From NCBI GenBank assembly GCA_964510205.1, contig CAZEBW010000004.1:3638-67637 (forward strand): 64,000 nt of DNA, in the 5' to 3' direction. This document shows positions 11,269 through 60,907 of the stretch, piece after piece. The translations under genes were made by a program, and so were the position numbers. Origin of the DNA: an uncultured Anaerolineae bacterium. Its GTDB lineage: Bacteria; Chloroflexota; Anaerolineae; VGOG01. The number at the start of each line of letters is the position of its first letter. Position 1 is the stretch's first letter. Under the pieces are notes generated by a model. It was not told the DNA's origin. It did no database searches and worked only from the letters and a program-made list of their open reading frames with translations.

Positions 11269-11400
11269 GCCTCCCTCCTGCAGAAGCGACGTGTGCTACT
11301 GGCCTAGATTATACTCGTGGTGGGGTAAAAGGCAAGCTCTGGTTGGGGAGAAAAGAAAGAGGCCATCCCGGTGGGTGAGGGGTGGGATGGCCCGGTCAAT

Positions 11401-11430
11401 TTGACAAGATTAGAACATGTGTGCTATAAT
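11401..11430 (+). promoter_or_regulatory. Near-consensus sigma70 promoter with extended -10 (TTGACA-18-TGcTATAAT)
   Basis: ttgacaagattagaacatgtgtgctataat read directly; ~55 nt upstream of the small ORF at 11486 with RBS agaggaggga. Confidence 0.6.
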
Positions 11431-11485
11431 CAATCTCGAAAAACCGTTCTGTTACTTACGCTTCTAATGCAGAGGAGGGAGTGAA

Positions 11486-11725
11486 ATGGGTTTGGATATT
11501 TGGTTCAAGGAAGACATTAGGAACATTCTATTGGGTGTGGAGTTGGCCAATGGGCATCTGGCCAGTCGCTACAGTGATGACGAAGTGCGGGCTTATCGTG
11601 AGGGGTTTAAGGCTGCTCTGGCAGCGACGGCGGTGAGTTTTGGGATCTATCAATTCGGACCGCGGGCGGAAGCGCATCGCATTGGGAGCCAAACTGCGCT
11701 CTCCACAATTGCAGAGCAGCCTTGA
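11486..11725 (+). CDS. Small hypothetical protein (79 aa) behind a strong promoter at the left edge of the low-GC island
   Basis: ORF with good RBS; no recognisable domain. Confidence 0.4.
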   Translation: MGLDIWFKEDIRNILLGVELANGHLASRYSDDEVRAYREGFKAALAATAVSFGIYQFGPRAEAHRIGSQTALSTIAEQP

Positions 11726-11840
11726 ACCCGGCTGATTGATTCTTAACCCCGATGCCATTCTCCACTGGGACGCCAGGCATGCTTTGTGCAAGGCGTGTCT
11801 GCTGCTGGTCTCGGTAGAGCGGTTGCGATGCCCCCACTTT

Positions 11841-13340
11841 TCATGGAAGCGGTGGCAGTAGTATCCTATTGATGGTTATGCCCCACTGGTCACTTCTTCG
11901 TTCAAGCCCTTCCATTAGTTGCTGGCATGCTGTGGCCTTGTTCGGCGGATCATGTACATCCTGTTGCCTGTATCCACATAACGCCTCATTCAGGAGCACG
12001 GCCATTTCCTGCACGATTTCTTTGTCCCAAATAGTCTTCATGTCGGCTTCGGTCAGTTTTTTCTTCTTGGTCTTCTTGTGGTTATTCTCACCAGATTCTC
12101 TAAAGAAGTGAGGTGCATGAACCGCTTTTTCCTTATTGACCTGGTAGTAAACTACTGGGGCAAGCTGCAAGACCCCATCTGCTAGTGCGACTTTCTGTTT
12201 GGGGCAACGGCATCTCAGCTCCATGGTCGGGATTACAGCTTGAATTTGGCTGTACAAGGGAAGCTGAAGAATACTTTGACCTTCTTCCAGCACCCTGATT
12301 TCGCGACTGTCTCCGATCACAGCAATCCTGTCGGGTGGGACGGTGAAGGTGAACGCCCTGTATCCAACGAGCACCAGAAGGACAAGCAAGAGTGGCAAGG
12401 CCGTACCCGCGGCAGTCAAGACAACGATGTGCAGTGAACTGCGCACGGAAAGCAGTATGCTCGCCAGCAGCATCAGTAGTACAATGACCACAAAGCCTGC
12501 CAACGCGCTGACAAAGGCGAGCACAGGGCTGGACAGTATTAGGTTGATGGCATCGCGAGCGTATGTGAGCAATGTCTCGAGTTGAATAGCAAGCGATGGT
12601 GGAGATTGCTCCGCCGCTCCGTCCTTCTCCTGCTCTGACGGCCTCATGCCTTGCGGACTGGCGTCTCCAGGTGGAAGGGATTCTTCGTCAATGTCCTCTG
12701 AGTTCATGGCTAGTCGTTCCGTCGTTTGCTCAGGCATACTCTCTTCACCCTCCTCTTGTTTTTGCTTCGCCTCTTGGCCTGACGGCTCCGTTTGTACGGG
12801 ACCAGCTCTTCCACGTCGAAGCGGTCCTCCGCCGGTATCTCCTGAATCCATGGCTACTTGTTGGTCTCGCAGGATCTTCCGGTATCGTGACTCGACTGTG
12901 CGCCTTAGGCGGCGGTCCATGTCCTGCAGCAGTTCCAGGCTGCGTGAACAGGCTTGACTTGCCTTGAGCCATTTGCCTTGGGCCTCGCACACCGTGGCCA
13001 ATCCAAAGAGGGCTACTGCTTGACTATGTTTGTCACTCAGAAAGAAGCGAGTGCTCTCTTGATACTTGTTGGCTGCCTCATCCAAGTGTTCCTGAGCGTG
13101 AAAGATAGCTGCGAGGTGAATAAGGGCTACCCCTTGAGCATATGAGTCATCCAACATGTCCAATTCGAGAGATCCTCTTGCTGATCTAATGCTTTGCTCA
13201 GCTATCGATTGGGCTGCTTTGTACCGGCCAGCTCGTCGCAGTTTGTCGGCCTCCTTGTTGAGCACGGTACCGCGATTAGTTCGTTCTCTTAGTTGGCGTA
13301 TGATCTGGTTGGCTTGTCGGTGGTAAGGATCGGATGTCAT
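11841..13340 (-). CDS. TPR-like / acidic linker / transmembrane / SPFH-like domain protein
   Basis: Likely start MTSDPYHRQ (rc ATG at 13338-13340). TPR-like helices, an E/D/Q-rich linker, two hydrophobic helices, then IAVIGDSREIRVLEEGQSILQLPLYSQIQAVIPTMELR...VVYYQVN resembling the start of an SPFH/band-7 domain. Confidence 0.5.
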   Translation of the reverse strand: MTSDPYHRQANQIIRQLRERTNRGTVLNKEADKLRRAGRYKAAQSIAEQSIRSARGSLELDMLDDSYAQGVALIHLAAIFHAQEHLDEAANKYQESTRFFLSDKHSQAVALFGLATVCEAQGKWLKASQACSRSLELLQDMDRRLRRTVESRYRKILRDQQVAMDSGDTGGGPLRRGRAGPVQTEPSGQEAKQKQEEGEESMPEQTTERLAMNSEDIDEESLPPGDASPQGMRPSEQEKDGAAEQSPPSLAIQLETLLTYARDAINLILSSPVLAFVSALAGFVVIVLLMLLASILLSVRSSLHIVVLTAAGTALPLLLVLLVLVGYRAFTFTVPPDRIAVIGDSREIRVLEEGQSILQLPLYSQIQAVIPTMELRCRCPKQKVALADGVLQLAPVVYYQVNKEKAVHAPHFFRESGENNHKKTKKKKLTEADMKTIWDKEIVQEMAVLLNEALCGYRQQDVHDPPNKATACQQLMEGLERRSDQWGITINRILLPPLP

Positions 13341-13419
13341 TGAAGTCCCCCCATAGAAGGAAAGCCCACCGGGATGCAGGAGAGTTGGGCCGGATAAACT
13401 AAGGTGTTCTGCGATATCG

Positions 13420-14727
13420 CTATGGGCTGCCAGGCGGCAATGCAATCGCTGATCTTATGGATTGCAGAGTGGCCATCACGTCGGAAGGCAGAAGGATCTT
13501 GGTCGCTGGATCGGAGGCCATTTTCTCCAGAGCTTCAATGAAACGCAAGGCTATGAATTGTGGAATCGGGATGTTCTTAGTCTCCATCTGACGGAAGCCT
13601 TCGGTGATGGCTATGATCATTCTAGTTTGAGCTTGTGCTCTGGCAACCTCAATCAGGTTATATACTTCAGCCTGTGCCTCGCCTTCAGTGATGAGGACTT
13701 GCTTGCGACTCTCCGCCATGCGCGCTTCCCAGTCTACTTGCCATTTCTTTTGCATTCCTTCCCTAATTTCCGGAGGCACCTCAATATTCAGCATCTGAAA
13801 GCTTATGATAGTGCCTCCCCAGCCTTCGGCTATCTTTCGCAGGGAATCTCGGACACGCTGCTTGATGTCGCTTTGAGGGAACGTGTTGGGATCCAGTGGG
13901 TCAAAGATATCATCCAAGTAACGTTTGCCAATCTCGTCGCGAAGCAGATTCTTGGCTACTTCGATAGTGGCGATTTCCCAGTCATAGCTATCGTAGGTAG
14001 CTTTGAGGACCGCCTCTCTAGAGAATGGATAGGGCTTCTCTGGGTTCCACACCTTGGCTGGATCCTGCGCGATGCGGAATAGAACGCTATAGTGGATGGT
14101 CACCGGTATGCCATCTTTGGTTGAGGCATTATCTAGCGTTCCTCTCCTGAACCGTTTCCGTGTGACGATGACCTTCCTGATACTTTCAAAAGGCTTGGTG
14201 CGCACTGCACCGGGCCCCTCAATGCGAGTGAATTTCCCCATCCGCTCGAAGACAACGGCTTGCTCGTTGCGTATTACGATCAAATTGGCTACCTTGAAGC
14301 CGGCGAGTGCGCCTTTGGACTTCACCTCGTCCACTTGGCCATCTTCAACGATGATGTAGCTTCCCAGGAATAGCTCTCCGGTGACAAAAGAGAGTAAATA
14401 CCGAAAGCAGTCCCACTGATTGCCGCCCCGGCTGACCAGTATGAGTTGCGAGGCCAGAAACAGGAGACTGCCTGTTAAGAATAGATAGACAGCCAGCCCC
14501 AATACTGCCCCCGTCAGGCCTCTCGTGACGAAGGAGAAGGTCAGAAACACCCCACTTGCAGTGAAGAATATCGCCAGCGCCACGCCCTTGCTCTGGCCCA
14601 TCCTGACAAGACACCCAAGGGAGACCACAGCGAGCCATACTAGGCCCCATTTGGGCTCGTGAACTACAGAGACTAAAATCAGTAGTGGAAGCAGGGCTAC
14701 GGACAACACAAGCAAGATCTTCTTCAT
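13420..14727 (-). CDS. SPFH/band-7 (stomatin/HflKC-like) domain membrane protein
   Basis: N-terminal 4-5 TM helices, then NEQAVVFERMGKFTRIEGPGAVRTKPFESIRKVIVTR...TKDGIPVTIHYSVLFRI (SPFH core) and a coiled-coil tail; start MKKILLVL. Confidence 0.7.
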   Translation of the reverse strand: MKKILLVLSVALLPLLILVSVVHEPKWGLVWLAVVSLGCLVRMGQSKGVALAIFFTASGVFLTFSFVTRGLTGAVLGLAVYLFLTGSLLFLASQLILVSRGGNQWDCFRYLLSFVTGELFLGSYIIVEDGQVDEVKSKGALAGFKVANLIVIRNEQAVVFERMGKFTRIEGPGAVRTKPFESIRKVIVTRKRFRRGTLDNASTKDGIPVTIHYSVLFRIAQDPAKVWNPEKPYPFSREAVLKATYDSYDWEIATIEVAKNLLRDEIGKRYLDDIFDPLDPNTFPQSDIKQRVRDSLRKIAEGWGGTIISFQMLNIEVPPEIREGMQKKWQVDWEARMAESRKQVLITEGEAQAEVYNLIEVARAQAQTRMIIAITEGFRQMETKNIPIPQFIALRFIEALEKMASDPATKILLPSDVMATLQSIRSAIALPPGSP

Positions 14728-14903
14728 AGCACAAGCTCTCCTTGTTTCTGTCAGCACTCTTAAGGTACGTGAGACTGCCGTCCAGTGCGTTCAACACGAG
14801 CTTATCTGACGGCGCCACAGGTATCACCCAGTTTCCATAGATCGAGGCAAAACCAAAAGGCCGCGGCTCGATATCGAAAACGTTTTGCAATGAGGGTGCT
14901 CAC

Positions 14904-16418
14904 TCAGCTCTGGGCGATCAAAATGGGGGAAGCCCAAGTCAAGTCATCCTTATTACGCATTGCCAGCTCTCGCCGGGCATCCAGCAGTGCCAGTTCAGGG
15001 CTGCCGTGCTGGAGCATAGAACGATAGAACGCCAGTGCCATTTCCTTGGCGCTCACTGCCGGCACTGACCACCTGTAGCCCAAAACAGACGGCACCCCTG
15101 ATTGGATAATTCCATCAGCGATACCCAGGTAGTCATCGTCCAGCAAATCAACCGGGCTGCCGGTACGAGTGCCCTCGCAGCACGTCAGGTGAAACAAACG
15201 GGTGTCAGAATCTTCCAACAGCCATCTCAGCTCATTTCCGGTCATTGGCTTTATATTCCCTGACCGGTTGCTGTCTTCCCAGAAGAACAATCTGCTCTGT
15301 TCCGGAGACCCCTCGTGAAAGACTCCGTGACCAACATAATGCACGATGTGATGCTTACACCCACGGAGCATTTCTTGCACTGCACTGTATGTAGCTGCTT
15401 CGGTTCTGACATGAGTCAAATCCAACCAGTTCAGTGGCGACAGCAAATCCACCAACTCTTCTCCGATTTTGTCAATCAGATCAATGCGTGGCTCAGTGTT
15501 GGACACGAGCAGTAGAACACGCAGGTTCTCGCCTGAACTGGCGAGACGTCGTATGAGTTCAGCAGAGATGGGTTCACGCCTCGTCACTACGCCTCGAATT
15601 TGGCGGACCATTGGATGGAGCAGTGTAAGGTAATCACCAGCCTCATCGGAAAAGATGAACTCCAGTGGCAATCCTGCCAGATCTCGGGTGGATTCAAACA
15701 CGAGGTGCAAGTATTGGTTCATTTGCGTCCTACCGAGTGCTCGGTGATACCCGTTGAGTACCGCAGAGTGCTGTTCGAACAGCAGGCGGTATAGCTCCCG
15801 TCCCACGTCTTTGATCAGAAAGCGGCGGTCTGCTGTGCTCATCATGCGTTCGCTTCCCCAGCGTGCAAAACGTGGAGCGTCGAGGCTTAGTGGATTGACA
15901 GAGGTGTATGTGAAGCGGATGTTGCCACGGCCCCGCACAAGAAGTCGCTGCCCTGGCTCTAGCGAGATTGTAATTTCGCACTCTTGGCTCGGCTCAAAGA
16001 CCGGCAATTGCCATTTCAATGACCTACTGATCACGCTATCCATCACTTTAACCACATCTTCTATCATGGTCTTTGGGAGGTACTCGGCTACAAGTCGCCG
16101 TCCAGTTGCATCAGGTTCCAGGGCGCGCCTCATCGTGTCAGGGGTACCATAGCCGGTGATAATGACAATCGGGAGCCCAGGGAATCGTCGTTTAAGCTCA
16201 GCAGCTAGATCAAGGCCTTCTAGGTTGCCTTCATCTGTCTCGTCCAAGCGCATGTCAAGTAGGGCTGCGTCGAAATGCTCTCGGTCAGACAAATCCAGGG
16301 CTCGCGCAACACTGGCAGCCGTTTTGGTTGCGTAGCCCTCGTCAATCAAGAGTTGTGAAAGGGTCACTCGCCAGTCAAACAAATCATCTACGATAAGCAC
16401 CTGGATTTGTTTAGTCAT
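14904..16418 (-). CDS. Response-regulator receiver fused to CHAT (caspase-like) protease domain
   Basis: REC: ILIVDDL...FDAALLDMRL...ITGYG...YLPKT. CHAT: IVHYVGHGVFH (catalytic His) and LFHLTCCEGT (catalytic Cys), C-terminus ALLDARRELAMRN...WASPILIAQS. Confidence 0.75.
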   Translation of the reverse strand: MTKQIQVLIVDDLFDWRVTLSQLLIDEGYATKTAASVARALDLSDREHFDAALLDMRLDETDEGNLEGLDLAAELKRRFPGLPIVIITGYGTPDTMRRALEPDATGRRLVAEYLPKTMIEDVVKVMDSVISRSLKWQLPVFEPSQECEITISLEPGQRLLVRGRGNIRFTYTSVNPLSLDAPRFARWGSERMMSTADRRFLIKDVGRELYRLLFEQHSAVLNGYHRALGRTQMNQYLHLVFESTRDLAGLPLEFIFSDEAGDYLTLLHPMVRQIRGVVTRREPISAELIRRLASSGENLRVLLLVSNTEPRIDLIDKIGEELVDLLSPLNWLDLTHVRTEAATYSAVQEMLRGCKHHIVHYVGHGVFHEGSPEQSRLFFWEDSNRSGNIKPMTGNELRWLLEDSDTRLFHLTCCEGTRTGSPVDLLDDDYLGIADGIIQSGVPSVLGYRWSVPAVSAKEMALAFYRSMLQHGSPELALLDARRELAMRNKDDLTWASPILIAQS

Positions 16419-17205
16419 GGCTGCTATCCGTGGGAGTTTCTATGGCTTTGATCACAGGGAGTGTGATCGCTATCGTCGTGCCGTGGCCAATCTCAGTATG
16501 TTTTACACTAATCTCTCCACCAAACCTGGCAAGTATCAAATGCGCTAACCAGAGACCCAGGCCCTTGTTGGTCCCGGTTGACGGAATCGGACCCTGAAAA
16601 AGATCGGCAAGAATGAGTTGCGGTATCCCTGTTCCGTTATCTGCAATCTCTACTCGCACTGTGTTGTCCGCGTCCACGTACTGGGTATGGATGTCAATAT
16701 GTCCGGGTTTTTTGCTTGTTGCTTGGATCGAGTTTTCGAGCACCGCCCGGAAAACCTCCGCGAGCAAGTGGCTATCAGCACGCACGGGAGGGACATCCTC
16801 TGGAAAATCAAAACTCACCCGTACTGTCTTGGAAGTGTGGCTAGCAGAAAGTTCTTCCCAGACCTCATACAGCAGTGAGTTTACGTCTAAGGGCATAGGC
16901 GGCTCACTCGGCTCTCTGAGTACTTCGACGGCGGCACTTAATTCGCTCAAACTGCTAATGGTCTTTTCTATGGCTGTGACCAGGTCGAGGGCGGCTCTAT
17001 CGTTGCTATTGATGTATTCCTTAAGACGACCGACTCGAACTCCCAGCAACCCAGTCAAGTTGGAGAGCTGGTGCAGTAATGCAGCAGAAGCCATCCCCAG
17101 TGCAATGAGGCTGGCCTCCTCCCCGTGGCTACGGTTAGGATGTGCACTTTCTTGCGGTAGGGGTGGATTTGGTCTCTGACTTTCCCGGTCATTTGGTGGA
17201 CTCAT
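16411..17205 (-). CDS. Cytoplasmic sensor histidine kinase (DHp + HATPase_c, no TM or sensor domain)
   Basis: H-box AALLHQLSNLTGLL; N, G1 (ADNGTGIP) and G2 (GLGLWLAHLI) boxes. Confidence 0.75.
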   Translation of the reverse strand: MSPPNDRESQRPNPPLPQESAHPNRSHGEEASLIALGMASAALLHQLSNLTGLLGVRVGRLKEYINSNDRAALDLVTAIEKTISSLSELSAAVEVLREPSEPPMPLDVNSLLYEVWEELSASHTSKTVRVSFDFPEDVPPVRADSHLLAEVFRAVLENSIQATSKKPGHIDIHTQYVDADNTVRVEIADNGTGIPQLILADLFQGPIPSTGTNKGLGLWLAHLILARFGGEISVKHTEIGHGTTIAITLPVIKAIETPTDSSHD

Positions 17206-17241
17206 TTGTCGGATTCTCCCAAGCGCGGCGCGTCCTTCAGT

Positions 17242-18768
17242 TCACTCCTGATGAATCAAGATAGGCGACAACCAGGTTGGATCGTTTCTGTCCATAGCGG
17301 CCAGCTCGCGCCTTGCGCTCCAGAGGGCGAACTCCGGCCCCCCTTGCTCCAATAAGGACTGGTAGAAAGCCAACGCCAGCCGACGGGCTCCATCATCTGA
17401 CACAGGCCAGCGGAAGCCCAGCACCGAGGGTGCGCCGGCCTGCGCGACAGCGTCGGCCAGCCCAAGGAAATCGTCATCCAGCAAAGCAGCCTGAGCGCCG
17501 CTGGCTGTGCCATAGCAACTGCTCATGTACACCAGACGTGCTTCCGAGCGCCTGAGTAGCATCTTTAGTTCGGTTGCTTTCATCGGCATGACGCCACCTT
17601 GCTTATTCTCCTGGGCCCAGAAGTATAGGCTGCTATCTTCAGGGGACTCGGTCCTGTACGAGCCATGTCCTGCGTAATGTACAATGTCGTAACTGGGCTT
17701 CCCCAACTCTGATCTTACGCGCTCATACGTGGCGCGCTCCGTGGGGATGAGTTTAACACTGACAGGGATGCAGTCCTGGCTCTTTAAGTACTCGTACAGT
17801 GCCTGCGCCTCGGCATCTACGCCGTCTATTGGAGGCTGTGTGTTAGAGGCGATAATCAGAATTCGCAATTCCTGAGTCAGTGCCAGCAGCGAAGGGGAAA
17901 TCAGGCTGCGTTTCGGGGTAGCATTGTATAGAAAACGGGCGAGGGGGTGTTGAAGTACCAGGTACTCTGGAGGATCATCCGAGCGCATAAATTCCAATGG
18001 TAGTCTGAGAAATTCCCTGGGCGTCTCAAAAAGCATTGAAAACGACTGGCTCTTGGCGCGCGCTTCCACATAGGCTTTTTCGGCTTCAGGGTGCTCAGTA
18101 AATATGTCACGCCACAGACTGTGGCCGATCTCCCCAACCTGGAAACGCAAATTGCTCACGTCTCTTCTGGCGAGTTCTGTCCGCCTTGCATAGCGTTCGA
18201 GTGCCACACGCAACACTTTCCACGAGCGCAAGGAACAGACGTGGCGACCGCGCGCCCTGATCACCAGAGGCTGTCCGGCTGTGAGTGATAGAGATAGCTG
18301 GGTAGCATCACCTGTCTTCTCAAACCTCGGCTTGGTTGCCTCCTGGCGTGCTTTCGCGATAGTCTCCAGAACTTGTTCAGCCACATCCGGGGTTTTTTCG
18401 ATGAAGTCAACTACTCCGAGATATCGAATCGCGCGTACAATTTGCTTGGTTCTCGGGTAGCGTGTGAGCAGGATGACGCGAACCCGCGGATTGAGGGCGC
18501 GGAATGCCATCGCCAGGCTCAATCCGCTTTCGTCCTCTTCATCATCTCCGTGCAGGCGCACGTCAATGAGAGCAAAGTCGAACGGTTCTTGCGTGACAGC
18601 AACCAGGGCTTGTTCCTCGTTGGCCGCTGACCGGACGGTGTATCCTTCATCGGAAAGTCGCCCTGCTAACGTGGTACAGAAATCGGCATGGTCATCTACT
18701 ATCAGAATCTTGCACATTGCTACCCTCTTCATCAACTGTCTGATGGGACGCTCCGGGTCATCCAGCAT
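17242..18768 (-). CDS. Response-regulator receiver fused to CHAT protease domain (second copy)
   Basis: REC: KILIVDDHADF...FDFALIDVRL...LTRYP...IEKT. CHAT His IVHYAGHGSY and Cys LVYMSSCYGT; start may be the internal M (MCKILIV). Confidence 0.75.
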   Translation of the reverse strand: MLDDPERPIRQLMKRVAMCKILIVDDHADFCTTLAGRLSDEGYTVRSAANEEQALVAVTQEPFDFALIDVRLHGDDEEDESGLSLAMAFRALNPRVRVILLTRYPRTKQIVRAIRYLGVVDFIEKTPDVAEQVLETIAKARQEATKPRFEKTGDATQLSLSLTAGQPLVIRARGRHVCSLRSWKVLRVALERYARRTELARRDVSNLRFQVGEIGHSLWRDIFTEHPEAEKAYVEARAKSQSFSMLFETPREFLRLPLEFMRSDDPPEYLVLQHPLARFLYNATPKRSLISPSLLALTQELRILIIASNTQPPIDGVDAEAQALYEYLKSQDCIPVSVKLIPTERATYERVRSELGKPSYDIVHYAGHGSYRTESPEDSSLYFWAQENKQGGVMPMKATELKMLLRRSEARLVYMSSCYGTASGAQAALLDDDFLGLADAVAQAGAPSVLGFRWPVSDDGARRLALAFYQSLLEQGGPEFALWSARRELAAMDRNDPTWLSPILIHQE

Positions 18769-19639
18769 TCCCCCAATTTGCCTGTATGTAACTCGTTGTC
18801 GCCTTTACGTCCAGGCTGCGAGTCGAATTGCCAATACGCACCCAGAACTTGTGAACATCGCCCGTCGCCAGGAACACCGGCTTTGGGCTTTTTTCAATCG
18901 CAACGATGCAGACGTGTTTACCATCTATGGGTTCGAAGCGTGTGCGAATGTATGGCATATATTCTAGACCCACATAGGTCTTGACAATATCCGTCAATGC
19001 CAATTGAAACCCATCGGTATTTGGCTTGCGCAGAGTTTGTAAGTCTTTTTCAATACCTAGCACCGTGCCATCGTCAGCGACGCCAATGAGTAGGGTCCCA
19101 CCCTTGCTGTTCAACATTCCTGTGATTGCCACGGCGATCGTTTCCTGCAGGCTCTTGTTAGTTGTGTTTTTCTTGAAATCCCAGCGGATACTGGACTTGA
19201 ATTCCACGTGGTCATTTTCACCTTGGGCAATCAAATTGAGTACCGAGCGTTCAAATGCGCGGTTCACGTACTCCGGCAGTTGGTCTACTTCAGATTTTTC
19301 CAGGAAGCCAAACGCTGGTGATACTCCCTCGCGATCAGGTTGAAGGACCTCCCTCACCATCCTGACGTTTGCATAGCCGGTCAAGATAATGATGGCCACA
19401 TGGGGGTCCTTCTCTCTGATCTCGCGCATAAGCAAGATGCCATCTTGGTTGTCCTCGTCGGCCTCGTCCAAGCGCACGTCCAGAACTGCGACGTGAAAAC
19501 GCTCGGCGTCCAACATTTGCAGAGCCTCAACTCTGCTGGATGCCGAGCGTACTTCATAGCCTTCGTCTGACAAAAGGCCCGACAATGTTGCGCACACGTC
19601 GGGCAGGTCATCTACTACGAGAACGCGACCTTTGTACAT
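18758..19639 (-). CDS. Response-regulator receiver fused to an AlbA_2 (Schlafen-like) domain
   Basis: Likely start MYKGRVLVVDD. REC with VAVLDVRL; C-terminal ENDHVEFKSSIRWDFKKN...TLLIGVADDGTVLGIEKD matches the AlbA_2/Schlafen N-domain signature. Confidence 0.65.
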   Translation of the reverse strand: MYKGRVLVVDDLPDVCATLSGLLSDEGYEVRSASSRVEALQMLDAERFHVAVLDVRLDEADEDNQDGILLMREIREKDPHVAIIILTGYANVRMVREVLQPDREGVSPAFGFLEKSEVDQLPEYVNRAFERSVLNLIAQGENDHVEFKSSIRWDFKKNTTNKSLQETIAVAITGMLNSKGGTLLIGVADDGTVLGIEKDLQTLRKPNTDGFQLALTDIVKTYVGLEYMPYIRTRFEPIDGKHVCIVAIEKSPKPVFLATGDVHKFWVRIGNSTRSLDVKATTSYIQANWGNAG

Positions 19640-19665
19640 GGCACTCCTGCCGATTGCATCTTGTC

Positions 19666-20067
19666 TTATCGTGCCAACACTTCCTGTACTATCTTGACCA
19701 ACTCTTCGGTCTGGGTTTTCGGGATATAGTTCGCTACAAGTCTCCGGCCCTGCGTATCTGGCTCCATTGCCCGTCTCATGGTATCCGGCGTGCCGTAGCC
19801 TGTGATCATTACGACTTCGGTAGTGGGCCAATGTTGTTTGATCTCATCCGCCAGGTCCAGCCCCTCGGTGTTACTCTCGTCCGTCTCGTCCAGGCGCATG
19901 TCCAGTACTGCCAGATCAAAATGGCTGGTTTTGAGCAACTCCAATGCCGCAGGCGAAGACTCGGCAACCTGGACATCGTATCCCGCGTCCTCCAACAAGC
20001 CACCGAGCGTCGTGCGCCAATCTAGCAGGTCATCTACCACCAGAATCTTCTGCCGTTTGTTTGTCAT
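19666..20067 (-). CDS. Single-domain CheY-like response regulator (paralog of the REC of the 14904 REC-CHAT)
   Basis: ILVVDDL...FDLAVLDMRLDETDESNTEGLDLADEIK...ITGYGTPDTMRRAMEPD...YIPKT, almost identical to the REC of 14904-16418. Confidence 0.8.
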   Translation of the reverse strand: MTNKRQKILVVDDLLDWRTTLGGLLEDAGYDVQVAESSPAALELLKTSHFDLAVLDMRLDETDESNTEGLDLADEIKQHWPTTEVVMITGYGTPDTMRRAMEPDTQGRRLVANYIPKTQTEELVKIVQEVLAR

Positions 20068-20459
20068 TCTCTTACTCCTTCGTGCTTACCATGGCGATTA
20101 CGCGGCACCTGTGGAAACAGAATGATCTCCCTGACCTGCTCGAAGAGATCCTCGCTTCCGAAAGACTTGGCGAAGTAGCGCATGGCTCCCAACCGGTAGG
20201 CCGCAAGCGCCTCTTGGGTCGTGGGTTGTACTGTTGTTACGACCACCCGCTTATCAGAGTATTTCTCAGCGATGACTGCAAGCACGTCCAGGCGGCGGGA
20301 GCTTGCGATGACCAGGTCGAACTGATCCGCTTCGAGTTCAGCGAGTGCTGCCTTGGTGTCAGGCGCAACGACGATTTCAAACTTGTTGAGATCGCTCTTG
20401 GCGAACTCAATCCAGCGAGGTTCGTCGTCAATGATCAGAATGCGAGTTTTCATGATCAC
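20064..20459 (-). CDS. Atypical receiver-like protein (pseudo-receiver; phospho-acceptor Asp apparently replaced)
   Basis: ILIIDDEP present, but the expected D in FDLVI-A-SSRRL is Ala. Confidence 0.55.
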   Translation of the reverse strand: MIMKTRILIIDDEPRWIEFAKSDLNKFEIVVAPDTKAALAELEADQFDLVIASSRRLDVLAVIAEKYSDKRVVVTTVQPTTQEALAAYRLGAMRYFAKSFGSEDLFEQVREIILFPQVPRNRHGKHEGVRE

Positions 20460-23400
20460 ACCTCCTTTCCCGTCCCCGGCGCTGGGATCTGAACCAGCAT
20501 TGTTGTTCCAGTGGGATCGGTCTCTTCTATTATAGCATCACCGCCAATACTTTGCAACATCAGTCGGCTGAGCCAGAGACCCAGACCTGCCCCTCCGCCT
20601 GGCTCCTTGGATGGGACTGGTTTGACGAAGAGACGTTGCTGGACTTGCAGTGGGATGCCCGGTCCTGTATCCTGAACCCGCACACAGATATTACTGTCGG
20701 TCAGACGACTGGTAACTGCTAACTGGCCACCCGCCTTCATTGCTCGGTAGGCATTGTCAACCAAGTTGTAGAAGACCTCAGCGATCTGACCGATCGGGGC
20801 CCGAATCTGCGGCAGCGATTGATCCAGGTCTAGGGTATGTTCGATCGTTGATCGAATGGGATCCGTTCGCCACTGTTCTCTCACTTTACCCACCACGTCA
20901 CTCAGCACTGCGTTAATGTCCACATCCTGATCCTCGACCTCTCGCAGCGGTTCTTGAATGCGCGCGATGATATCCGACGTATAGCGGGCGTTACGTTCGA
21001 TGATGTCAAGGATCTCTGCAATCGTATCATTCGACATATCAACGCGCTTCCGCAGGCGCGTCACGTTGGGAACGATGATGTTGAAGGTATTATTGACACG
21101 ATGTTGTAAAGCTGCGATGGCCGTGCCCAGTGTGGCCAAGCGCTTGGTCGCGATGACTTCACTGCGTGCCTCCTCATATAACCGGGCATTCTCAAGGGCA
21201 ATGGCTGCCTGGTTGGCCATAGAGGAGATGACCTGCAAGTCCTGTTCATCGTAGGCCTGCTCTCTTTCCCAGTCGTAGATAGCGATCACGCCCAGAACCC
21301 TATTCTCCAGAACCATCGGGACACCTATCCAAGATTTGGCGACACGCCCGATGAACTCTTGATGTCCGGGCTGTCCATACCACGCTTTAGATTCCACTTG
21401 GGTGCGATGCAGGATTGGCTTCTTGGTAAGGATGACTTCTTCGGTCTTACCCCGCTTCTCCATATCAGCCTTGCGGGGATCGTAATGCACCTGCTCACCG
21501 TGCTCCGTTGCCAGACCGAAGCGGATCATCCCTGTTTCCTCGTCATACAGCGCGATGTACATGTCCTGTGCGCCGGTCAACTCCCTGGCCTGCTCGTAGA
21601 TTAGCTCCAGAATCTCATCTTGCTTCAGACGAATACCGGAGGTTAGTGCCTGTCCTACCTCATTCAGTGCCGCCAACGCCTGAACGCGCCGTGCGAGCTG
21701 CTGGTTGATCTCGTAGTAAAGCGTTGCATTATCCAACGCGATTGCCGCTTGGTTGGCCACAGAGGAGATGACCTGCAAGTCCTGTTCATCGTAGGCCTGC
21801 TCTCTTTCCCAGTCATAAATGGCGATCATACCCAGTACCTTCTCACCTGTGACCATGGGAACGCCCAAGTAAGAAGGCTGAACACGCCCGATGAACTCTT
21901 GATGTCCGGGCTGTCCATACCACGCTTTAGATTCCACTTGGGTGCGATGCAGGATTGGCTTCTTGGTAAGGATGACTTCTTCGGTCTTACCCCGCTTCTC
22001 CATATCAGCCTTGCGGGGATCGTAATGCACCTGCTCACCGTGCTCCGTTGCCAGACCGAAGCGGATCATCCCTGTTTCCTCGTCATACAGCGCGATGTAC
22101 ATGTCCTGTGCGCCGGTCAACTCCCTGGCCTGCTCGTAGATTAGCTCCAGAATCTCATCTTGCTTCAGACGAATACCGGAGGTTAGTGTCTGTCCCACCT
22201 CGTTCACTGCCTGTATAGCTTTATACAAGCGTGCGCTTTTAATAGCAACCGCTGCTGCCCCAGCTAGGGCCTCAACCAGACGCATGTGATCGTCTGTAAA
22301 GGCTCCGATTTGGGTACTCTCCAGATTGAGCGTTCCAATCACTCTGTCACGGTGTATCAACGGTGTTGTGAGTTCGGATTGTACTTCCTCAAACCACTCC
22401 TTGTAGTACGGATCGCTTTTGATATCGTTGCAAAGATATGTCTTTCTACTCAAGGCAACGTGTCCGTTGATGCTCGTCTCGTCTAGGGGTAGTCTCGTGA
22501 GGGTTCGCGTCGGCGTCTCATCCCTCTTGTTTCTCGCCCCAAATCGCAGTTCACGTGTCCGCTCGTCCAGCAACCAAATACTCGTATACTTGGCTGGCGT
22601 CAGCCTGGCCGCTTGCTCTGCGATTTGCTCCAGCAGATCCTCTAGGGAAGCAGTGCCAATGAGCGCGTATAGGTTCTGAAGAGCTCTGATATCATCAATT
22701 CGCTCTTGTAGGCTAGTCTGAGCCTCTTCGTACACACGGGCGTTATAGATAGCTGTCGCCGCTTGATTAGCGAACAGCTCGATAGCCCCCCGTTGCTCAG
22801 GAGTGAAGGGTTGTCGGCTCCGGTAATTGACGAACATAGCGCCCACGGTTTCGCCTGCTGCTTCGAGGGGGACGGCGGCTGACGATAGGATTCCCTCGCG
22901 CACTACAAAGCGCTTTTCCGGGCGCTCAGGGCGCTCTACGGTGAATGGGCCGGTGAGCAGGGTATCCGTCTGAGTATCGGGAGAGTAGAGGGGCTCTCCA
23001 CCCTCGACCACTTTCACAACGACATCATCCTTGAATATTTCGTCCTTGACAACTGTGGGGTCTCGGCGCTCTCCTTCCAAGATAGGTGGCATGATGTAAC
23101 GGTCATCCGCCTCAACGTACTGGTACACATCCACGAGATCGGCACCCAATACACTCCTGGCACTTCGCGCCACCTGACGCAATACCTCTCTCAACCCCTG
23201 TGCCGAAAGCTCAGCCGAGAGTATTCGTCCCCCAATCTGGTGCAGCCTCTGCAAGACTGCAGCCCGGCTGGTTGCCTGCTCAAGAAGTTGAGCATTGTGT
23301 ACAGCCACGGCGGACTGGCTGGCCACCGCCTCTAACAGCATCTGATCGTGCTCGTCAAAGCCGCTCAGCCCGTCCATATCAGCAGAGATCACCCCAATAA

Positions 23401-24193
23401 CCTCGTCTTGCAAGATTATGGGCGCCAGCACCATTGAGCGCTCGACGATGTCTGACGACAAACCGGGGACAAACTGAGGGTGCTTGACCGCATCCGGGAC
23501 GAGTTCTGATTGCTTGGTTTGGGCTACCCACCCGGCCAACCCGACCCCTTGGGCGAACTGCTGTCGTGCGATGCCTGCTGACGAGGCAGCTTCCAACGCT
23601 AGGTCACCGCTCTTATCCACTAGAAAAACGCTGATGTGCTTGCAATCCAGCACTCTTTCTGCGGCTTGCATAATGCGTGCGAAAAGATCGGCACGGCGCA
23701 ATTCGGAACTGATCAAGAGGCTCACTGCGTTCAGGGTCGCCAGATCCTGAATTCGACGCTGCGTGGCAGCCACTTGAGCGGAAGAACTCTCAATCAGCGC
23801 CTTCTCGAAATCAGTGAAATCCCTTGCCTCACGGGTATAAACGTCAAGCACACCAACGATTTTCCTTTTTACTCGTAGTGGTACCACCATAGCCGACTTC
23901 AGTCCCATAGCGGTGGTTTCTGGTTTGTACTTCCAGCGAGCATCGGTGTCAACGTCTGTCACGACGATTGCCTGTTCAGTCGCAAAAACGTCAGACGCGA
24001 CACTGGGCTCATCCAGGCGCAGAAACGCATCGCGAACGTATTCCTCTGACAACTCTGTCGCTGCAGCGATCCGGAGGGTTTCCCCCGTTTCATCGGCAAG
24101 CCAGATACAGGCCGGCAGTCCCAGAGTCTGGCTTATGGTCTCCACCACGGGTTGAAAGAACTGCTTTTTATCAAGTTCTTGAGAGGGGATCAT
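20456..24193 (-). CDS. Large cytoplasmic multi-GAF-domain sensor histidine kinase (1245 aa)
   Basis: At least 5-6 GAF-like modules, coiled coil, H-box ALQHRVNN, HATPase_c (DTGPGIP...GLGLWLSR); no TM helices. Confidence 0.8.
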   Translation of the reverse strand: MIPSQELDKKQFFQPVVETISQTLGLPACIWLADETGETLRIAAATELSEEYVRDAFLRLDEPSVASDVFATEQAIVVTDVDTDARWKYKPETTAMGLKSAMVVPLRVKRKIVGVLDVYTREARDFTDFEKALIESSSAQVAATQRRIQDLATLNAVSLLISSELRRADLFARIMQAAERVLDCKHISVFLVDKSGDLALEAASSAGIARQQFAQGVGLAGWVAQTKQSELVPDAVKHPQFVPGLSSDIVERSMVLAPIILQDEVIGVISADMDGLSGFDEHDQMLLEAVASQSAVAVHNAQLLEQATSRAAVLQRLHQIGGRILSAELSAQGLREVLRQVARSARSVLGADLVDVYQYVEADDRYIMPPILEGERRDPTVVKDEIFKDDVVVKVVEGGEPLYSPDTQTDTLLTGPFTVERPERPEKRFVVREGILSSAAVPLEAAGETVGAMFVNYRSRQPFTPEQRGAIELFANQAATAIYNARVYEEAQTSLQERIDDIRALQNLYALIGTASLEDLLEQIAEQAARLTPAKYTSIWLLDERTRELRFGARNKRDETPTRTLTRLPLDETSINGHVALSRKTYLCNDIKSDPYYKEWFEEVQSELTTPLIHRDRVIGTLNLESTQIGAFTDDHMRLVEALAGAAAVAIKSARLYKAIQAVNEVGQTLTSGIRLKQDEILELIYEQARELTGAQDMYIALYDEETGMIRFGLATEHGEQVHYDPRKADMEKRGKTEEVILTKKPILHRTQVESKAWYGQPGHQEFIGRVQPSYLGVPMVTGEKVLGMIAIYDWEREQAYDEQDLQVISSVANQAAIALDNATLYYEINQQLARRVQALAALNEVGQALTSGIRLKQDEILELIYEQARELTGAQDMYIALYDEETGMIRFGLATEHGEQVHYDPRKADMEKRGKTEEVILTKKPILHRTQVESKAWYGQPGHQEFIGRVAKSWIGVPMVLENRVLGVIAIYDWEREQAYDEQDLQVISSMANQAAIALENARLYEEARSEVIATKRLATLGTAIAALQHRVNNTFNIIVPNVTRLRKRVDMSNDTIAEILDIIERNARYTSDIIARIQEPLREVEDQDVDINAVLSDVVGKVREQWRTDPIRSTIEHTLDLDQSLPQIRAPIGQIAEVFYNLVDNAYRAMKAGGQLAVTSRLTDSNICVRVQDTGPGIPLQVQQRLFVKPVPSKEPGGGAGLGLWLSRLMLQSIGGDAIIEETDPTGTTMLVQIPAPGTGKEV
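21209..22290. repeat. 540-bp tandem duplication (2 copies) of one GAF module inside the histidine kinase gene, with a ~320-nt 100% identical core
   Basis: 21343-21662 equals 21883-22202 at nucleotide level (the + strand ORFs 21359-21604 and 21749-22144 translate identically); flanks ~75-85% identical. Confidence 0.75.
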
Positions 24194-24228
24194 GGGTCAC
24201 TCTCCTTGTCATCTGTAAATGGGCAGAT

Positions 24229-25569
24229 TCAATTATGAGGTTGGTGTCTCCAGACTTCCAATGACTCCCTATATCCCGCTTCCGAAAATGCTAACCCCTT
24301 CTCCCTCAGCATCATAGCGGTGAGAAGGTGAGGTAATCCTTTCTTCTTTTCCAGGAAGACGATTTGTGGGCCGGAAAGCGTACGCCTACCATTCTTCTTC
24401 AGGAATTGCATGAGCTGGCGACGTCCGCGCTCAACGGTCTTTAAGAAACGCTGTGCCTCGGTTGAGAAATAGGATTCCAGTTTCTCCTCGTCCTCCGGCG
24501 CCGCTCGCGAAGCGTTGCGCACTGTTTGGGAAATGCAATCTATCAGTGTGGGTAGAAACCCCCTGGTTTCGATGCCCAGAACAATCTGCCGCGTTACGAC
24601 ACCTCGAATCAATAGCTTAATGAGACGCTCTCGCCCATTCTTACCTGGAGGTGGAGCGCCATCTGCGACTAGGAAATACAGCGCCTTTAGATAATCTGCC
24701 ATCACATGTTCGCTGGCAGTGATCAACGATTCTGGCAGGTCAGGTGCGCGAACGAGACTATGTATGGTGTCTGTGATCGGTTGGTAACTACTTATCTCAA
24801 ACACTGATTGAGCATCTTGCAGGATCATTGCCACGCGCTCAGTGCCAATCACCGTTTCGAAGAAAGGCTCCGTCATCGGTTGGAGCCTTTGGGTCTTAGT
24901 GTCTATCTCGGTGCTGACAAAGAGTGAATTGGCGAATTCAACGAACCGACCGCACTGGCAAGGCGGCCGACAATCGGGGCCGCAGCCAAAGACCGCGCCT
25001 CGATCAAAGAACATCTCAGTATTGGGCCCGCATTTACGATAGCGAACTACCCCTTCAATGCCATTTCCTTGTTTCCAGAGGTTGTCCTTGACTCCCAGAC
25101 CTATGATCTGCTCTTCAGGCATCCCGATACTCCGCCAAGCTTGATGAGCCTCTACATCCTCGTCAAACGCATGCTTTGAAATCTTACCCCCGGCGAAATA
25201 AGTGACCCATATGTTGTCTGGCTTGATTCTCAGGTTTGAGGTCATGAACTCCCACATTTGCTGGATAACAGTTGCCTTGCTGAGAGCATTAAAGGAAAAA
25301 GCGGCGGGCATTTCAAACAAGCTTAGGTGCACATTGTCGGTTCCAACGGTGTCAATGTCGAAATATCTGAAGCACTTTTGCACCAGTGCATACTTATGCC
25401 CGGCACGCTTGCCCATCTGATCAAGAGCCTTTTCAAATTGCGGTAATCCAGCACTCATTACGAACGACATAGGAATAGAGGGATGCAACAGCGAGGCACT
25501 AGGCAGAACGGAGAATCCTTTGCCCTGGTAATAATCGAGGAACGTTTGGCTAATGGCTGGGGATCGCAT
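24229..25569 (-). CDS. Alanyl-tRNA synthetase catalytic-fragment paralog (AlaRS N-terminal ~441-aa-like, divergent)
   Basis: SQTFLDYYQGKGFSVLPSASLL...QFEK...VQKCFRYFDIDTVG...HLSLFEMPAAFSF...GKNGRERLIKLLIRG is collinear with the AlaRS N-terminus (FLDFF..GH..VPS..LLFTNAGM..QKCIR..D.VG..HHTFFEML.NFSFGDYFK..GNEGRGYVLRRIIRR). No editing or C-Ala domains; several canonical motif residues are changed. Confidence 0.6.
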   Translation of the reverse strand: MRSPAISQTFLDYYQGKGFSVLPSASLLHPSIPMSFVMSAGLPQFEKALDQMGKRAGHKYALVQKCFRYFDIDTVGTDNVHLSLFEMPAAFSFNALSKATVIQQMWEFMTSNLRIKPDNIWVTYFAGGKISKHAFDEDVEAHQAWRSIGMPEEQIIGLGVKDNLWKQGNGIEGVVRYRKCGPNTEMFFDRGAVFGCGPDCRPPCQCGRFVEFANSLFVSTEIDTKTQRLQPMTEPFFETVIGTERVAMILQDAQSVFEISSYQPITDTIHSLVRAPDLPESLITASEHVMADYLKALYFLVADGAPPPGKNGRERLIKLLIRGVVTRQIVLGIETRGFLPTLIDCISQTVRNASRAAPEDEEKLESYFSTEAQRFLKTVERGRRQLMQFLKKNGRRTLSGPQIVFLEKKKGLPHLLTAMMLREKGLAFSEAGYRESLEVWRHQPHN

Positions 25570-25620
25570 TTTCTAGCTCCAAATCACGCGATACACCGAA
25601 CGTTATTGTAGATGCATGAA

Positions 25621-25649
25621 TATTATATCAAACCTGTCCTTAAATGTCA
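25621..25649 (-). promoter_or_regulatory. Perfect sigma70 consensus promoter (TTGACA-17-TATAAT on the minus strand) driving the AlaRS-like / HK / REC / CHAT operon
   Basis: Reverse complement reads ttgacatttaaggacaggtttgatataat; ~45-nt leader with ggag RBS before the ATG at 25569. Confidence 0.55.
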
Positions 25650-25704
25650 AGGCATCCAAAATACTGGATAGACATACACCGTATCGTTCAAGGAGTTGGG
25701 GTAA

Positions 25705-26070
25705 TCACACATTCGGGTGATGGCACTTCTTCCCAGTCGAAAATATCTCTAGCGAAGGGGCATCATATCGAGGCCCTCCTTCGAAGTCCCTAACGAACCG
25801 GTAAAACTCGTCAATGAAGCTGACTAATTCATCAGTATGCTCACTGATCGCCTTGACATCAGGGGAGATGTTCTCCTTGAGTTCCCTCTTGAACTTTTCA
25901 TCCTTCTCCTCAAGAGCAGCCCAATCCCAAGCCCCGTCAAGGTACTTGCGAATCTCCCCTAGCACATGATCTCGTGCGAGTGTGAGATCAGATGGGCAAT
26001 CTTTTGCCTTTAATCTACGATAATCTAATTCCATTTCCCTGCAAAGGGCTGGCGCATGGTCTCTGTCCAT
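25705..26070 (-). CDS. Hypothetical protein (possible C-terminal part of a frameshifted lipoprotein)
   Basis: 121-aa ORF, no domain; low-GC. Confidence 0.3.
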   Translation of the reverse strand: MDRDHAPALCREMELDYRRLKAKDCPSDLTLARDHVLGEIRKYLDGAWDWAALEEKDEKFKRELKENISPDVKAISEHTDELVSFIDEFYRFVRDFEGGPRYDAPSLEIFSTGKKCHHPNV

Positions 26071-26249
26071 CCCCTCGAAACTCTCAACACGTGAGTCAAA
26101 TTCATTGAGCGATTGACCAGCTCACAGGCATATTCCCTTACCAATTTGACATCAGCAGGTTTTGAGGATGTCTGCTCAGGGCTGCAGGCCATGACCACCG
26201 GCATTAGAAAACAAAACAGAAGTAGCAAGACAATCTTTTTCATGAGCAC
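26025..26249 (-). CDS. Lipoprotein N-terminal fragment (signal peptide + lipobox), possibly frameshifted into the downstream ORF
   Basis: MLMKKIVLLLLFCFLMPVVMACSPEQ; overlaps 25705-26070 in another frame by 46 nt. Confidence 0.35.
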   Translation of the reverse strand: MLMKKIVLLLLFCFLMPVVMACSPEQTSSKPADVKLVREYACELVNRSMNLTHVLRVSRGWTETMRQPFAGKWN

Positions 26250-26440
26250 TCTACCTCCTCAGATGGTGTGGCAGATCGTAGTGCCGGCAGGTCAGAGCCA
26301 GAAGCTGATTGGCCCCGACATTTCATAGATTAGTTAGGGCTCTAGAAGAGTGTAATCCATTCGCCACGGTTCATTTACGGGGGTTACCTGCGTCATGCTT
26401 CCACCCCTCTACACGGCGGTTGCGCCCCCCCAAAAAACGC

Positions 26441-60489: not shown

Positions 60490-60907
60490 CTCGTCGTTTC
60501 CTGGGCTGAATGAAAGTGGTCTCGTGCTCCTCGAAGATCACCCGGAAGGTCTCAAGGAAGTCCTGCCTGCCCAGCAAAGGGGGGATGTCATCCCTGTCCA
60601 GGAAGCCAAGCGGGATATGCCTCTCCCAGCGACCAAGCTTGACCGTCACATCACGGCATAGATAAATTGTCTCGCTGCCGCCAATGCCGTGGGTACCGTG
60701 TTCTATGCAATCCACATTGACATCTATCCCCAGTAGAGGAGCATACCGTTTGGGCATAATGGTGTAATCGGCTCCGGTATCAACTATCATGCTGACGGAT
60801 ACCCAATTGTCCTGCTCTTTCGTCTGGACCAGAACGTCAGCAACAGGGCGATACACGACGCCGAAGAGATCGGAGGGCACGGCTTTGTGACGGAATTTTA
60901 GAGCCAT
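60467..60907 (-). CDS. Retropepsin-like (clan AA) aspartic peptidase domain protein
   Basis: VSMIVDTGADYTIM (D-T-G-A active-site motif). Confidence 0.55.
   Translation of the reverse strand: MALKFRHKAVPSDLFGVVYRPVADVLVQTKEQDNWVSVSMIVDTGADYTIMPKRYAPLLGIDVNVDCIEHGTHGIGGSETIYLCRDVTVKLGRWERHIPLGFLDRDDIPPLLGRQDFLETFRVIFEEHETTFIQPRKRRDARHAAG

Follow-up and report, generated by a model that had tools for sequence, protein, structure and literature searches.

The subject of this work is a block of about 15 kb, here called the island (positions 11300-26440), in a 64-kb stretch of DNA from an uncultured Anaerolineae bacterium (contig CAZEBW010000004.1; the whole stretch is referred to as the window). 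The cargo of the island is probably one long operon. All of its large genes lie on the minus strand and are tightly spaced, and they are transcribed in order from a gene for a protein resembling alanyl-tRNA synthetase (AlaRS) to a gene for a TPR-membrane protein, with the likely operon promoter at 25650-25622 (Table 1). An earlier note, made from the sequence by eye, had remarked on the AT-richness of the island, on its histidine kinase, CHAT and SPFH genes and on promoters at its ends, and had suggested that the whole module was acquired horizontally. The AlaRS-like gene (24229-25569) was absent from that account.

The island encodes a two-component system with receiver-fused effectors

By domain content the operon specifies two histidine kinases, each with an H-box and an HATPase_c domain, and four receivers in which the phospho-accepting Asp aligns with D57 of CheY. 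The gene for the larger kinase contains an in-frame tandem duplication of 540 bp, equal to one GAF unit (21186..22265), within which 300 nucleotides are 100% identical; two other assemblies end inside this duplication, at 22159. Between loci, the length of the GAF kinase varies from 553 to 2065 residues, and the GAF array therefore expands and contracts quickly. After the kinase comes a pseudo-receiver that, like all eight homologues aligned with it, has lost the segment with the phospho-Asp. Its identity to seven of these homologues is 59-77%, which places the pseudo-receiver among the best-conserved parts of the module. The stand-alone receiver that comes next is a possible phosphate buffer or relay.

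The remaining three receivers are fused to putative effectors. One is joined to a Schlafen/AlbA_2 domain, and homologues of 296-300 residues are found in loci L006 and L008. The other two are joined to CHAT domains (PF12770), and both proteins carry GHG and SC/CC motifs, which are candidate His/Cys dyads assigned by eye in the translations and not by structural alignment; the first of them also has weak matches to CHAT models of defense systems. A short second kinase lies between the two CHAT genes and holds the same position in L023, where the gene order of the window is repeated through the second kinase and the second CHAT gene. The last two genes had been described as an SPFH pair. This is apt for one of them, a clear Band_7 protein (13420-14757) with a weak match to HflK, but its partner (11841-13445) is a TPR-membrane protein whose C-terminal Band_7 match is below threshold (E 0.003, 18 bits); the protein is collinear with the neighboring SPFH protein (E 0.012).

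Table 1. Features of the island and the genes at its two edges, in positions of the window.
Feature	Position	Strand	Basis and remarks
Left flank: family-2 glycosyltransferase, host gene	10312..11268	-	Pfam Glycos_transf_2; GC3 0.82
Island-edge intergenic DNA	11269..11485	.	GC 0.51; without homology to L012; two promoter-like sites
Small gene, 79 residues, with ribosome-binding site, convergent with operon	11486..11725	+	GC3 0.55
TPR-membrane segment-divergent SPFH-like protein	11841..13445	-	Pfam TPR_12; longest open reading frame 534 residues; 499 residues, start 13340, in L085 call
Membrane SPFH/Band 7 protein	13420..14757	-	Pfam Band_7 8.9e-18, 65 bits vs cut-off 23.6; 435 residues, start 14727, in L085 call
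Receiver-CHAT protease 2, phospho-Asp present	14904..16418	-	Pfam Response_reg and CHAT (PF12770) 4.4e-27; YVGHG, LTCCEG motifs
Short second histidine kinase: H-box and HATPase_c, no sensor domain	16411..17205	-	Pfam HATPase_c; AtoS/NtrB-like matches
Receiver-CHAT protease 1	17242..18768	-	Pfam Response_reg and CHAT (PF12770) 1.5e-33; YAGHG, MSSCYG motifs
Receiver-Schlafen/AlbA_2 protein, 293 residues, probable start MYKGRV	18758..19639	-	Pfam Response_reg and SLFN_AlbA_2 2.8e-18
Stand-alone receiver, intact phospho-Asp	19666..20067	-	Pfam; alignment with CheY
Conserved pseudo-receiver	20064..20459	-	Start overlaps kinase stop codon
Cytoplasmic histidine kinase, six GAF domains, 1245 residues	20456..24193	-	Pfam 6x GAF and HATPase_c; NtrB/AtoS-type kinase core
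AlaRS-like protein, 446 residues, first operon gene	24229..25569	-	Pfam tRNA-synt_2c 5e-70
Split lipoprotein gene: 72-residue signal-peptide/lipobox and 121-residue open reading frames, different frames	25705..26243	-	Upstream of operon promoter
Right flank: conserved lipoprotein, host gene	26441..27730	-	GC3 0.87; homology to relatives ends 26447

The first gene encodes a truncated AlaRS paralogue with an altered alanine pocket

The AlaRS-like protein aligns end to end with crystallized N-terminal fragments of AlaRS (E. coli 1-441, A. aeolicus and others; PDB 3hxu, 1riq and 9jdn; E 1e-42 to 1e-49). Identity to these solved fragments fixes its fold, and the protein consists of the aminoacylation and tRNA-recognition domains alone. 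The match to the alaS model covers positions 2-417 of 847, without the editing and C-Ala domains, and the scores (224 bits against a cut-off of 457 for TIGR00344, 191 against 529 for NF002436) do not qualify the protein as an alaS equivalog. It belongs to a tight family of at least 120 clusters, in which the best 120 matches are nearly all of about 445 residues, and it is 27-31% identical to real alaS genes in plasmid and phage collections. The defense, NCBI and phage family libraries hold no dedicated model for this protein, nor for the GAF kinase, the small open reading frame or the lipoprotein of the island.

Collinear with the canonical 441-residue fragment over the aminoacylation and tRNA-recognition region, the family keeps R69, W170, N212 and the motif-3 Glu-Arg (E. 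coli AlaRS chain numbering). Beyond the missing domains, it differs from the canonical enzyme in its pocket, where the changes M43L, V214L, D235E and G237V are invariant (L216, E238 and V240 in the numbering of the window protein for the last three positions), in the deletion of residues 70-73 (AGGK, in the motif-2 loop), and in a cluster of four extra invariant cysteines. D235 and G237 reportedly line the alanine site in the work of Guo et al. from 2009, and the G237A crystal chains 3hxz and 3hy0 are among the PDB matches of the protein. All four substitutions enlarge side chains, and normal alanine activation therefore seems unlikely, while ATP binding may persist.

A conserved sensor core is combined with interchangeable effectors in several phyla

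A scan of species-representative genomes gave 64 loci. The module is found in Chloroflexota, Cyanobacteria, Bacteroidota and Gammaproteobacteria, a distribution which indicates that the module clearly moves horizontally. Pairing was counted over 40 loci with a full-length AlaRS-like gene. In 34 of these a GAF-kinase homologue follows immediately, and in 36 it lies on one side or the other. In a metagenome-assembled genome (MAG) of Anaerolinea sp. (L046, 9989-13888) the two are fused: one open reading frame of at least 1300 codons joins an AlaRS-like domain to four or five GAF domains, and the contig ends before the kinase domain. Fusions of this kind signal direct functional coupling. The conserved core of the module is a truncated AlaRS paralogue and a multi-GAF histidine kinase with its coupled pseudo-receiver.

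Downstream of the core come receivers, and then receiver-fused effectors in the last position or positions, which vary by lineage. Chloroflexota (the window, L006, L008, L023 and others) have receiver-CHAT and receiver-AlbA_2 proteins, with an EAD7-CHAT variant in L006. Peptidase_C14 caspases take this place in Phormidium and Spirulina (L040-L042), CHAT-receiver proteins in Saprospiraceae (L050 and L053), and a ThsB-like receiver-TIR protein (2.9e-19) in an Anaerolineaceae MAG (L032); a Pseudomonadota MAG (L060) has a weak TIR match below the Pfam cut-off. The gene that follows the GAF kinase in Thiofilum and Thiolinea specifies a protein of 470-500 residues (L066, 14344-15840; L069, 14191-15594) that matches nothing in Pfam or PADLOC and may be an unrecognized type of effector. 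Full-text literature searches, which left most subscription journals outside their coverage, found no description of a module of AlaRS-like protein, GAF kinase and receiver-effector. The operon is thus conserved and apparently undescribed.

The low GC content of the island is mainly synonymous

With the window alone as the host baseline, GC is 0.530 over 11300-26440 and 0.604 over the remaining 48.9 kb, which ranges from 0.589 to 0.617 in chunks of the island's size (15.1 kb). The sliding profile has a plateau at about 11.3-26.4 kb with 1-kb windows of 0.47-0.57. The earlier note had therefore drawn the low-GC block correctly, and its estimate by eye of 48-55% was about right; its figure of 63-66% for the surroundings fits the two genes directly flanking the island (0.639 and 0.643) and is too high for the window overall.

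The codon-usage and k-mer analyses that had been proposed as checks also found a deviation. Mean GC at third codon positions (GC3) is 0.581 in the 11 island genes (0.52-0.66) and 0.759 in the 34 other genes of the window (0.61-0.87), a significant difference (Mann-Whitney p = 1.6e-6). At first positions the values are 0.600 and 0.635, and at second positions 0.398 and 0.420, gaps of only 0.035 and 0.02. The drop is mainly synonymous and falls almost wholly on third codon positions. NNA and NNT codons replace NNC and NNG in nearly all codon families; from the rest of the window to the island, GCC falls from 0.55 to 0.31 of its family, CCC from 0.51 to 0.24, and ATC from 0.75 to 0.51. Tetranucleotide usage deviates as well, correlating with the rest at 0.80 when host chunks reach at least 0.885 (mean 0.904), whereas the dinucleotide signature of the island is no outlier (41, against a host-chunk mean of 34 and maximum of 45).

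Two other spots on the minus strand of the window are AT-shifted relative to their neighbors. One is a HEPN/nucleotidyltransferase (MNT) pair of toxin-antitoxin type (62557-63292; GC3 0.61-0.63), and the other a gene for a retropepsin-like aspartyl protease (60467-60907; GC3 0.61).

The island occupies a variable site in related genomes

To the left of the island the host genes encode two family-2 glycosyltransferases (GT2), an HNH protein and a low-molecular-weight phosphatase; to its right lie the conserved lipoprotein gene, a Mur-ligase/FolC-like gene, a GH99-like gene and Lon. An exact look-up of the left-flank GT2 protein gave no match, presumably owing to another choice of start codon. 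Contigs of relatives were reached through homologues of the right-flank lipoprotein. The block is missing from the orthologous site in L010-L013, L014, L015 and L083. The flanks of L010-L013 are 82-83.5% identical to the window at the nucleotide level, and by blastn the homology stops at 26447 and resumes at 11263 (82.6% identity in the alignment with L012 that ends at 11263). These breakpoints coincide with the compositional edges to within a few bases.

What takes the place of the island differs from one relative to the next. In L010-L013 the order is Lon, GH99, Mur ligase, lipoprotein, PhnD-like binding protein, ABC ATPase, N6/N4 methylase with XcyI-type endonuclease, permease, two GT2 genes, HNH and phosphatase. 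The methyltransferase and XcyI-type restriction endonuclease of L012 (6727-9058; GC3 0.50-0.57) form a restriction-modification (R-M) pair inside the ABC-transporter operon at the position of the island, and the locus thus collects defense-type cargo. The stop codon of the permease overlaps the GT2 start in L012 (10481-10484), and this junction has an ancestral look. In L015 the transporter is present but the R-M pair is not, and L014 has unrelated small genes. In L083, a 605-residue permease is followed by unrelated AT-rich sequence (15553-15939), where the contig ends.

The L083 permease is of the same 605-residue allele type as that of L016, a type 75-78% identical to that of L012/L015, so the flanking transporter exists as two divergent allele types within the clade. 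L016 itself carries the module, in the order ABC ATPase, permease, AlaRS-like gene, GAF kinase; its similarity to L012 goes no further than the stop codon of the permease, and its AlaRS-like protein is 81% identical to that of the window (84% at the nucleotide level over the gene). The module in L016 thus occupies the neighboring junction of the same locus, and the window has lost the transporter. From these comparisons, the site between the lipoprotein and GT2 genes is a variable hotspot with at least five states.

Promoters and small genes at the island edges

Both ends of the island carry perfect promoter matches (12/12) with an extended -10 TG, TTGACA-18-TGnTATAAT on the plus strand at 11401-11430 and TTGACA-17-TGnTATAAT on the minus strand at 25650-25622, when about 0.004 such matches per 16 kb are expected by chance from base composition. 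The note had placed the second site at 25621-25649. This site lies 52 nucleotides upstream of the AlaRS-like gene and is the likely operon promoter, and homology with the relatives L016 and L017 begins in its region (25622..25650). The site at the left edge is equally real as a sequence match but was misread as outward; it fires inward, and the two promoter-like sites are convergent, both pointing into the island.

The left promoter would drive the 79-residue gene that converges on the end of the operon. Its reported span (11401-11725) takes in the promoter, but the gene at 11486-11725 is real: the protein belongs to a family with 248 cluster representatives that share a domain of about 55 residues, some members of 260 residues carrying four tandem copies. 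It has no match in Pfam, NCBIfam or PHROG and is not next to the module in the other loci examined. The same edge holds a 10/12 promoter-like site on the minus strand (TTGCCT-16-TATAAT, 11335-11308), 40 nucleotides upstream of the GT2 start and facing the GT2 genes. Since GT2 is translationally coupled to the ABC permease in L012, the insertion may have supplied a new promoter to the GT2 gene.

At the right edge, the lipoprotein gene upstream of the operon promoter is apparently split by a frameshift near 26105-26125, and two other assemblies agree with this sequence exactly. None of the related loci yielded a homologue, and the gene is private to this genome's island.

The operon as a proposed Detocs-like suicide or defense system

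The explanation that we favor, with modest confidence in its three parts taken together, is that the 15-kb segment is flexible-genome DNA at a hypervariable site, with a conserved lipoprotein gene on one side and an operon of glycosyltransferases on the other, that its AT-richness is a standing property of the module and of accessory and conflict genes generally, as opposed to the fading signature of one recent transfer, and that the module is a Detocs-like two-component suicide or defense system. This last part is our best reading of the operon by analogy.

Detocs is the closest experimentally characterized analogue, and it establishes that an architecture of kinase (DtcA), buffer receiver (DtcB) and receiver-effector (DtcC) can be an abortive-infection system (bioRxiv 10.1101/2023.01.24.525353). 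The island shares with it the combination, within one operon, of a sensor kinase in the cytoplasm, at least one stand-alone receiver, and further receivers that carry interchangeable, putatively cell-killing effectors. The sensors differ, a TPR kinase in Detocs and here a multi-GAF kinase paired, and once fused, with an AlaRS-like protein. So do the effectors, mainly a PNP ATP nucleosidase in Detocs and CHAT, caspase, TIR or AlbA_2 here, and the module of the window has an additional pseudo-receiver, second kinase and SPFH/TPR genes. In PADLOC, whose release we could not confirm to include Detocs profiles, the matches listed for the kinases and receivers include no Dtc-named model and no other named kinase or receiver model of a defense system, but only weak receiver-domain matches to SduA and PDC candidates.

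A second likeness is to the CHAT/caspase- and TIR-based conflict systems of multicellular bacteria, in which the driving sensors are STAND, vWA or other NTPases (Kaur et al. 2020, PMC7159879). The effector repertoire, the preference for filamentous or multicellular lineages and the patchy distribution are common to both, but an AlaRS-like protein and a histidine kinase stand here in place of the NTPase sensors; the catalogue of vWA-associated effectors in that work includes no histidine kinases, and AlaRS is unmentioned (PMC7159879).

We propose the following mechanism. The AlaRS-like protein, with its ATP-binding motifs kept and its alanine pocket remodeled, would report a tRNA, amino-acid or nucleotide cue or would make an adenylate-type signal, and the GAF kinase would read this cue or signal, modulated by the pseudo-receiver. 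The kinase would pass phosphate to the free receiver, possibly a buffer against leaks as proposed for DtcB, and would also phosphorylate the receiver-fused effectors, namely the two CHAT caspase-like proteases and the Schlafen/AlbA_2 protein. Once activated, these may bring about cell suicide, growth arrest or filament-level defense, possibly at SPFH membrane scaffolds.

The operon itself, with sensor-type proteins upstream and phospho-acceptor-fused effectors downstream, is conserved. Several points tell against the function that we assign to it. A role in suicide or defense is read from architecture and comparison; the sensor proteins match no known defense-system model in the defense libraries; AlbA_2 domains occur in bacterial transcription regulators as well; and SPFH pairs with a TPR protein accompany the module in 6 of the 40 loci, a subset of Chloroflexota, so that a part for them in the mechanism is tentative.

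The lack of a defense match for the sensors also suits an alternative in which the operon serves the ordinary physiology or development of filamentous bacteria as a phosphorelay, perhaps one that links the state of amino acids or tRNA charging to regulated proteolysis, the organization of membrane microdomains or the fragmentation of filaments. Many of the host lineages named here are filamentous. Cyanobacterial development involves CHAT proteases such as HetF, and a weak HetF match is found here; SPFH proteins usually partner housekeeping proteases. Swapping of TIR, caspase, CHAT and Schlafen-type effectors on a constant sensor core, however, is typical of immune systems, as are a patchy occurrence, an AT-rich accessory character and residence in a hotspot where one relative has an R-M system. 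We regard such a non-conflict role as unlikely on balance, but it remains a serious rival to a suicide or defense system.

The AT-richness marks accessory DNA and not a recent donor

The low GC is not peculiar to this genome. Among 26 loci from other species, in several phyla, with enough flank for comparison, all but one have a lower GC3 downstream of the AlaRS-like gene than in the flanking genes (25 of 26; mean difference -0.18, Wilcoxon p = 4e-7). Flank GC3 in these hosts spans 0.28 to 0.77, and module GC3 regresses on host GC3 with a slope of 0.60. Other accessory genes, the R-M pair of L012 and the HEPN/MNT pair and retropepsin-like gene of the window, are AT-shifted as well. An AT shift is generally known for mobile and defense genes. 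The GC dip of the island therefore marks flexible-genome DNA and neither a donor nor a recent date. The proposal that the whole module was acquired horizontally is accordingly borne out insofar as the segment is accessory DNA absent from the orthologous site of relatives, but the GC contrast is not evidence of a recent low-GC donor.

Like a classical integrase-borne genomic or defense island, the segment deviates in composition, is missing from relatives, shares its hotspot with an R-M system and has strong promoters of its own. It differs in having no integrase, transposase, tRNA target or direct repeats: no integrase or transposase domains were found among the island open reading frames, no tRNA genes in the window, and no att-like direct or inverted repeats flanking the island ends, all long repeats being internal (the GAF duplication and the receiver paralogues). 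In plasmid and phage collections the module family brought up only the canonical alaS genes mentioned above, and no carrier was identified.

Mobility is thus left without an explanation by an integrase, a tRNA gene, terminal repeats or a copy on a plasmid or phage, and this is the first of a few considerations that count against our account of the island's origin. Gain in the lineage of the window and loss in the relatives are both compatible with the data. The AlaRS-like genes of the window, L016 and L017, at pairwise synonymous divergence (dS) of 0.34-0.56, have GC3 of 0.549-0.554 next to host genes of 0.82-0.87, and their equal GC3 could also stem from parallel amelioration. Finally, we first inferred a recent inter-lineage transfer from a module dS of 0.55 between the window and L016 against 1.0-1.26 for the ABC genes between L016 and L012. 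We withdrew this argument, since L083 has the ABC type with the 605-residue permease and yet a lipoprotein as close to that of the window as L012's, which makes the yardstick invalid.

The module could instead be ancestral at the locus, inherited vertically and lost by the relatives, its low GC3 reflecting weak expression and relaxed codon selection. Its divergence between the window and L016/L017 (84% nucleotide identity, dS 0.55) is indeed similar to that of the flanks between the window and L012/L083 (83-84%, dS 0.6-0.75), and its GC3 is stable across lineages. However, the tight overlap of permease stop and GT2 start in L012 is unlikely to have been recreated by deletion, the site has at least four different states, and the module has a patchy distribution across phyla and different neighborhoods in L003, L006 and L008. 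We consider vertical descent improbable, somewhat more so than the developmental phosphorelay.

Doubtful to a greater degree is recent acquisition from a donor of about 53% GC, whose signature would not yet have been ameliorated. The sharp GC3 step at both edges, the deviant tetranucleotide usage and the absence of the module from the orthologous site in L010-L015 would agree with such an event. Against it stand the AT shift across hosts, the scaling of module GC3 with host GC3, the persistence of a GC3 of 0.55 at a dS of about 0.55 in L016, at the same locus, and in L017, and a dinucleotide signature that is no outlier. An assembly or binning chimera bringing in a low-GC block from another organism, which a metagenome-assembled source and the frequent breaks of relatives' contigs near the module might suggest, is rejected as highly improbable, because separately assembled contigs span the left junction (L085, 11128-16037) and the right junction (L001, 27849-22159) at 100% identity, and in L016, too, ABC genes of host type (GC3 0.82-0.84) are contiguous with the module.

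As an example for genome scanning, the GC dip correctly flags accessory DNA, but for the wrong reason, and the contrast can neither date a transfer nor point to a donor.

A possible synthetase-like sensor for a phosphorelay

AlaRS is held to be among the synthetases least prone to paralogy (PMC5388404). Despite this, a truncated AlaRS-like family of at least 120 clusters is genetically bound to a GAF kinase and death-type effectors in at least four phyla.

GCN2 offers a parallel, as a kinase under the control of a synthetase-like domain to which uncharged tRNA binds. In both cases a catalytically altered homologue of an aminoacyl-tRNA synthetase is coupled to a protein kinase, here genetically in 36 of the 40 loci and by fusion in L046. 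GCN2 combines HisRS with a Ser/Thr kinase, whereas the module combines AlaRS with a histidine kinase and has other outputs, and tRNA binding by its AlaRS-like protein is putative.

We tentatively speculate, as a possibility that we would not yet call probable, that the AlaRS-like protein and the multi-GAF kinase are the sensor core of an undescribed cross-phylum family of two-component immune or programmed-death systems, mostly in filamentous bacteria, which either senses tRNA or amino-acid perturbation as GCN2 does or makes an adenylate or dinucleotide signal read by the GAF array, and so triggers the receiver-fused effectors. If true, phosphorelay immunity in the manner of Detocs would also reach caspase, TIR and Schlafen outputs, and the module would provide a testable bacterial case of a synthetase-like sensor controlling a kinase.

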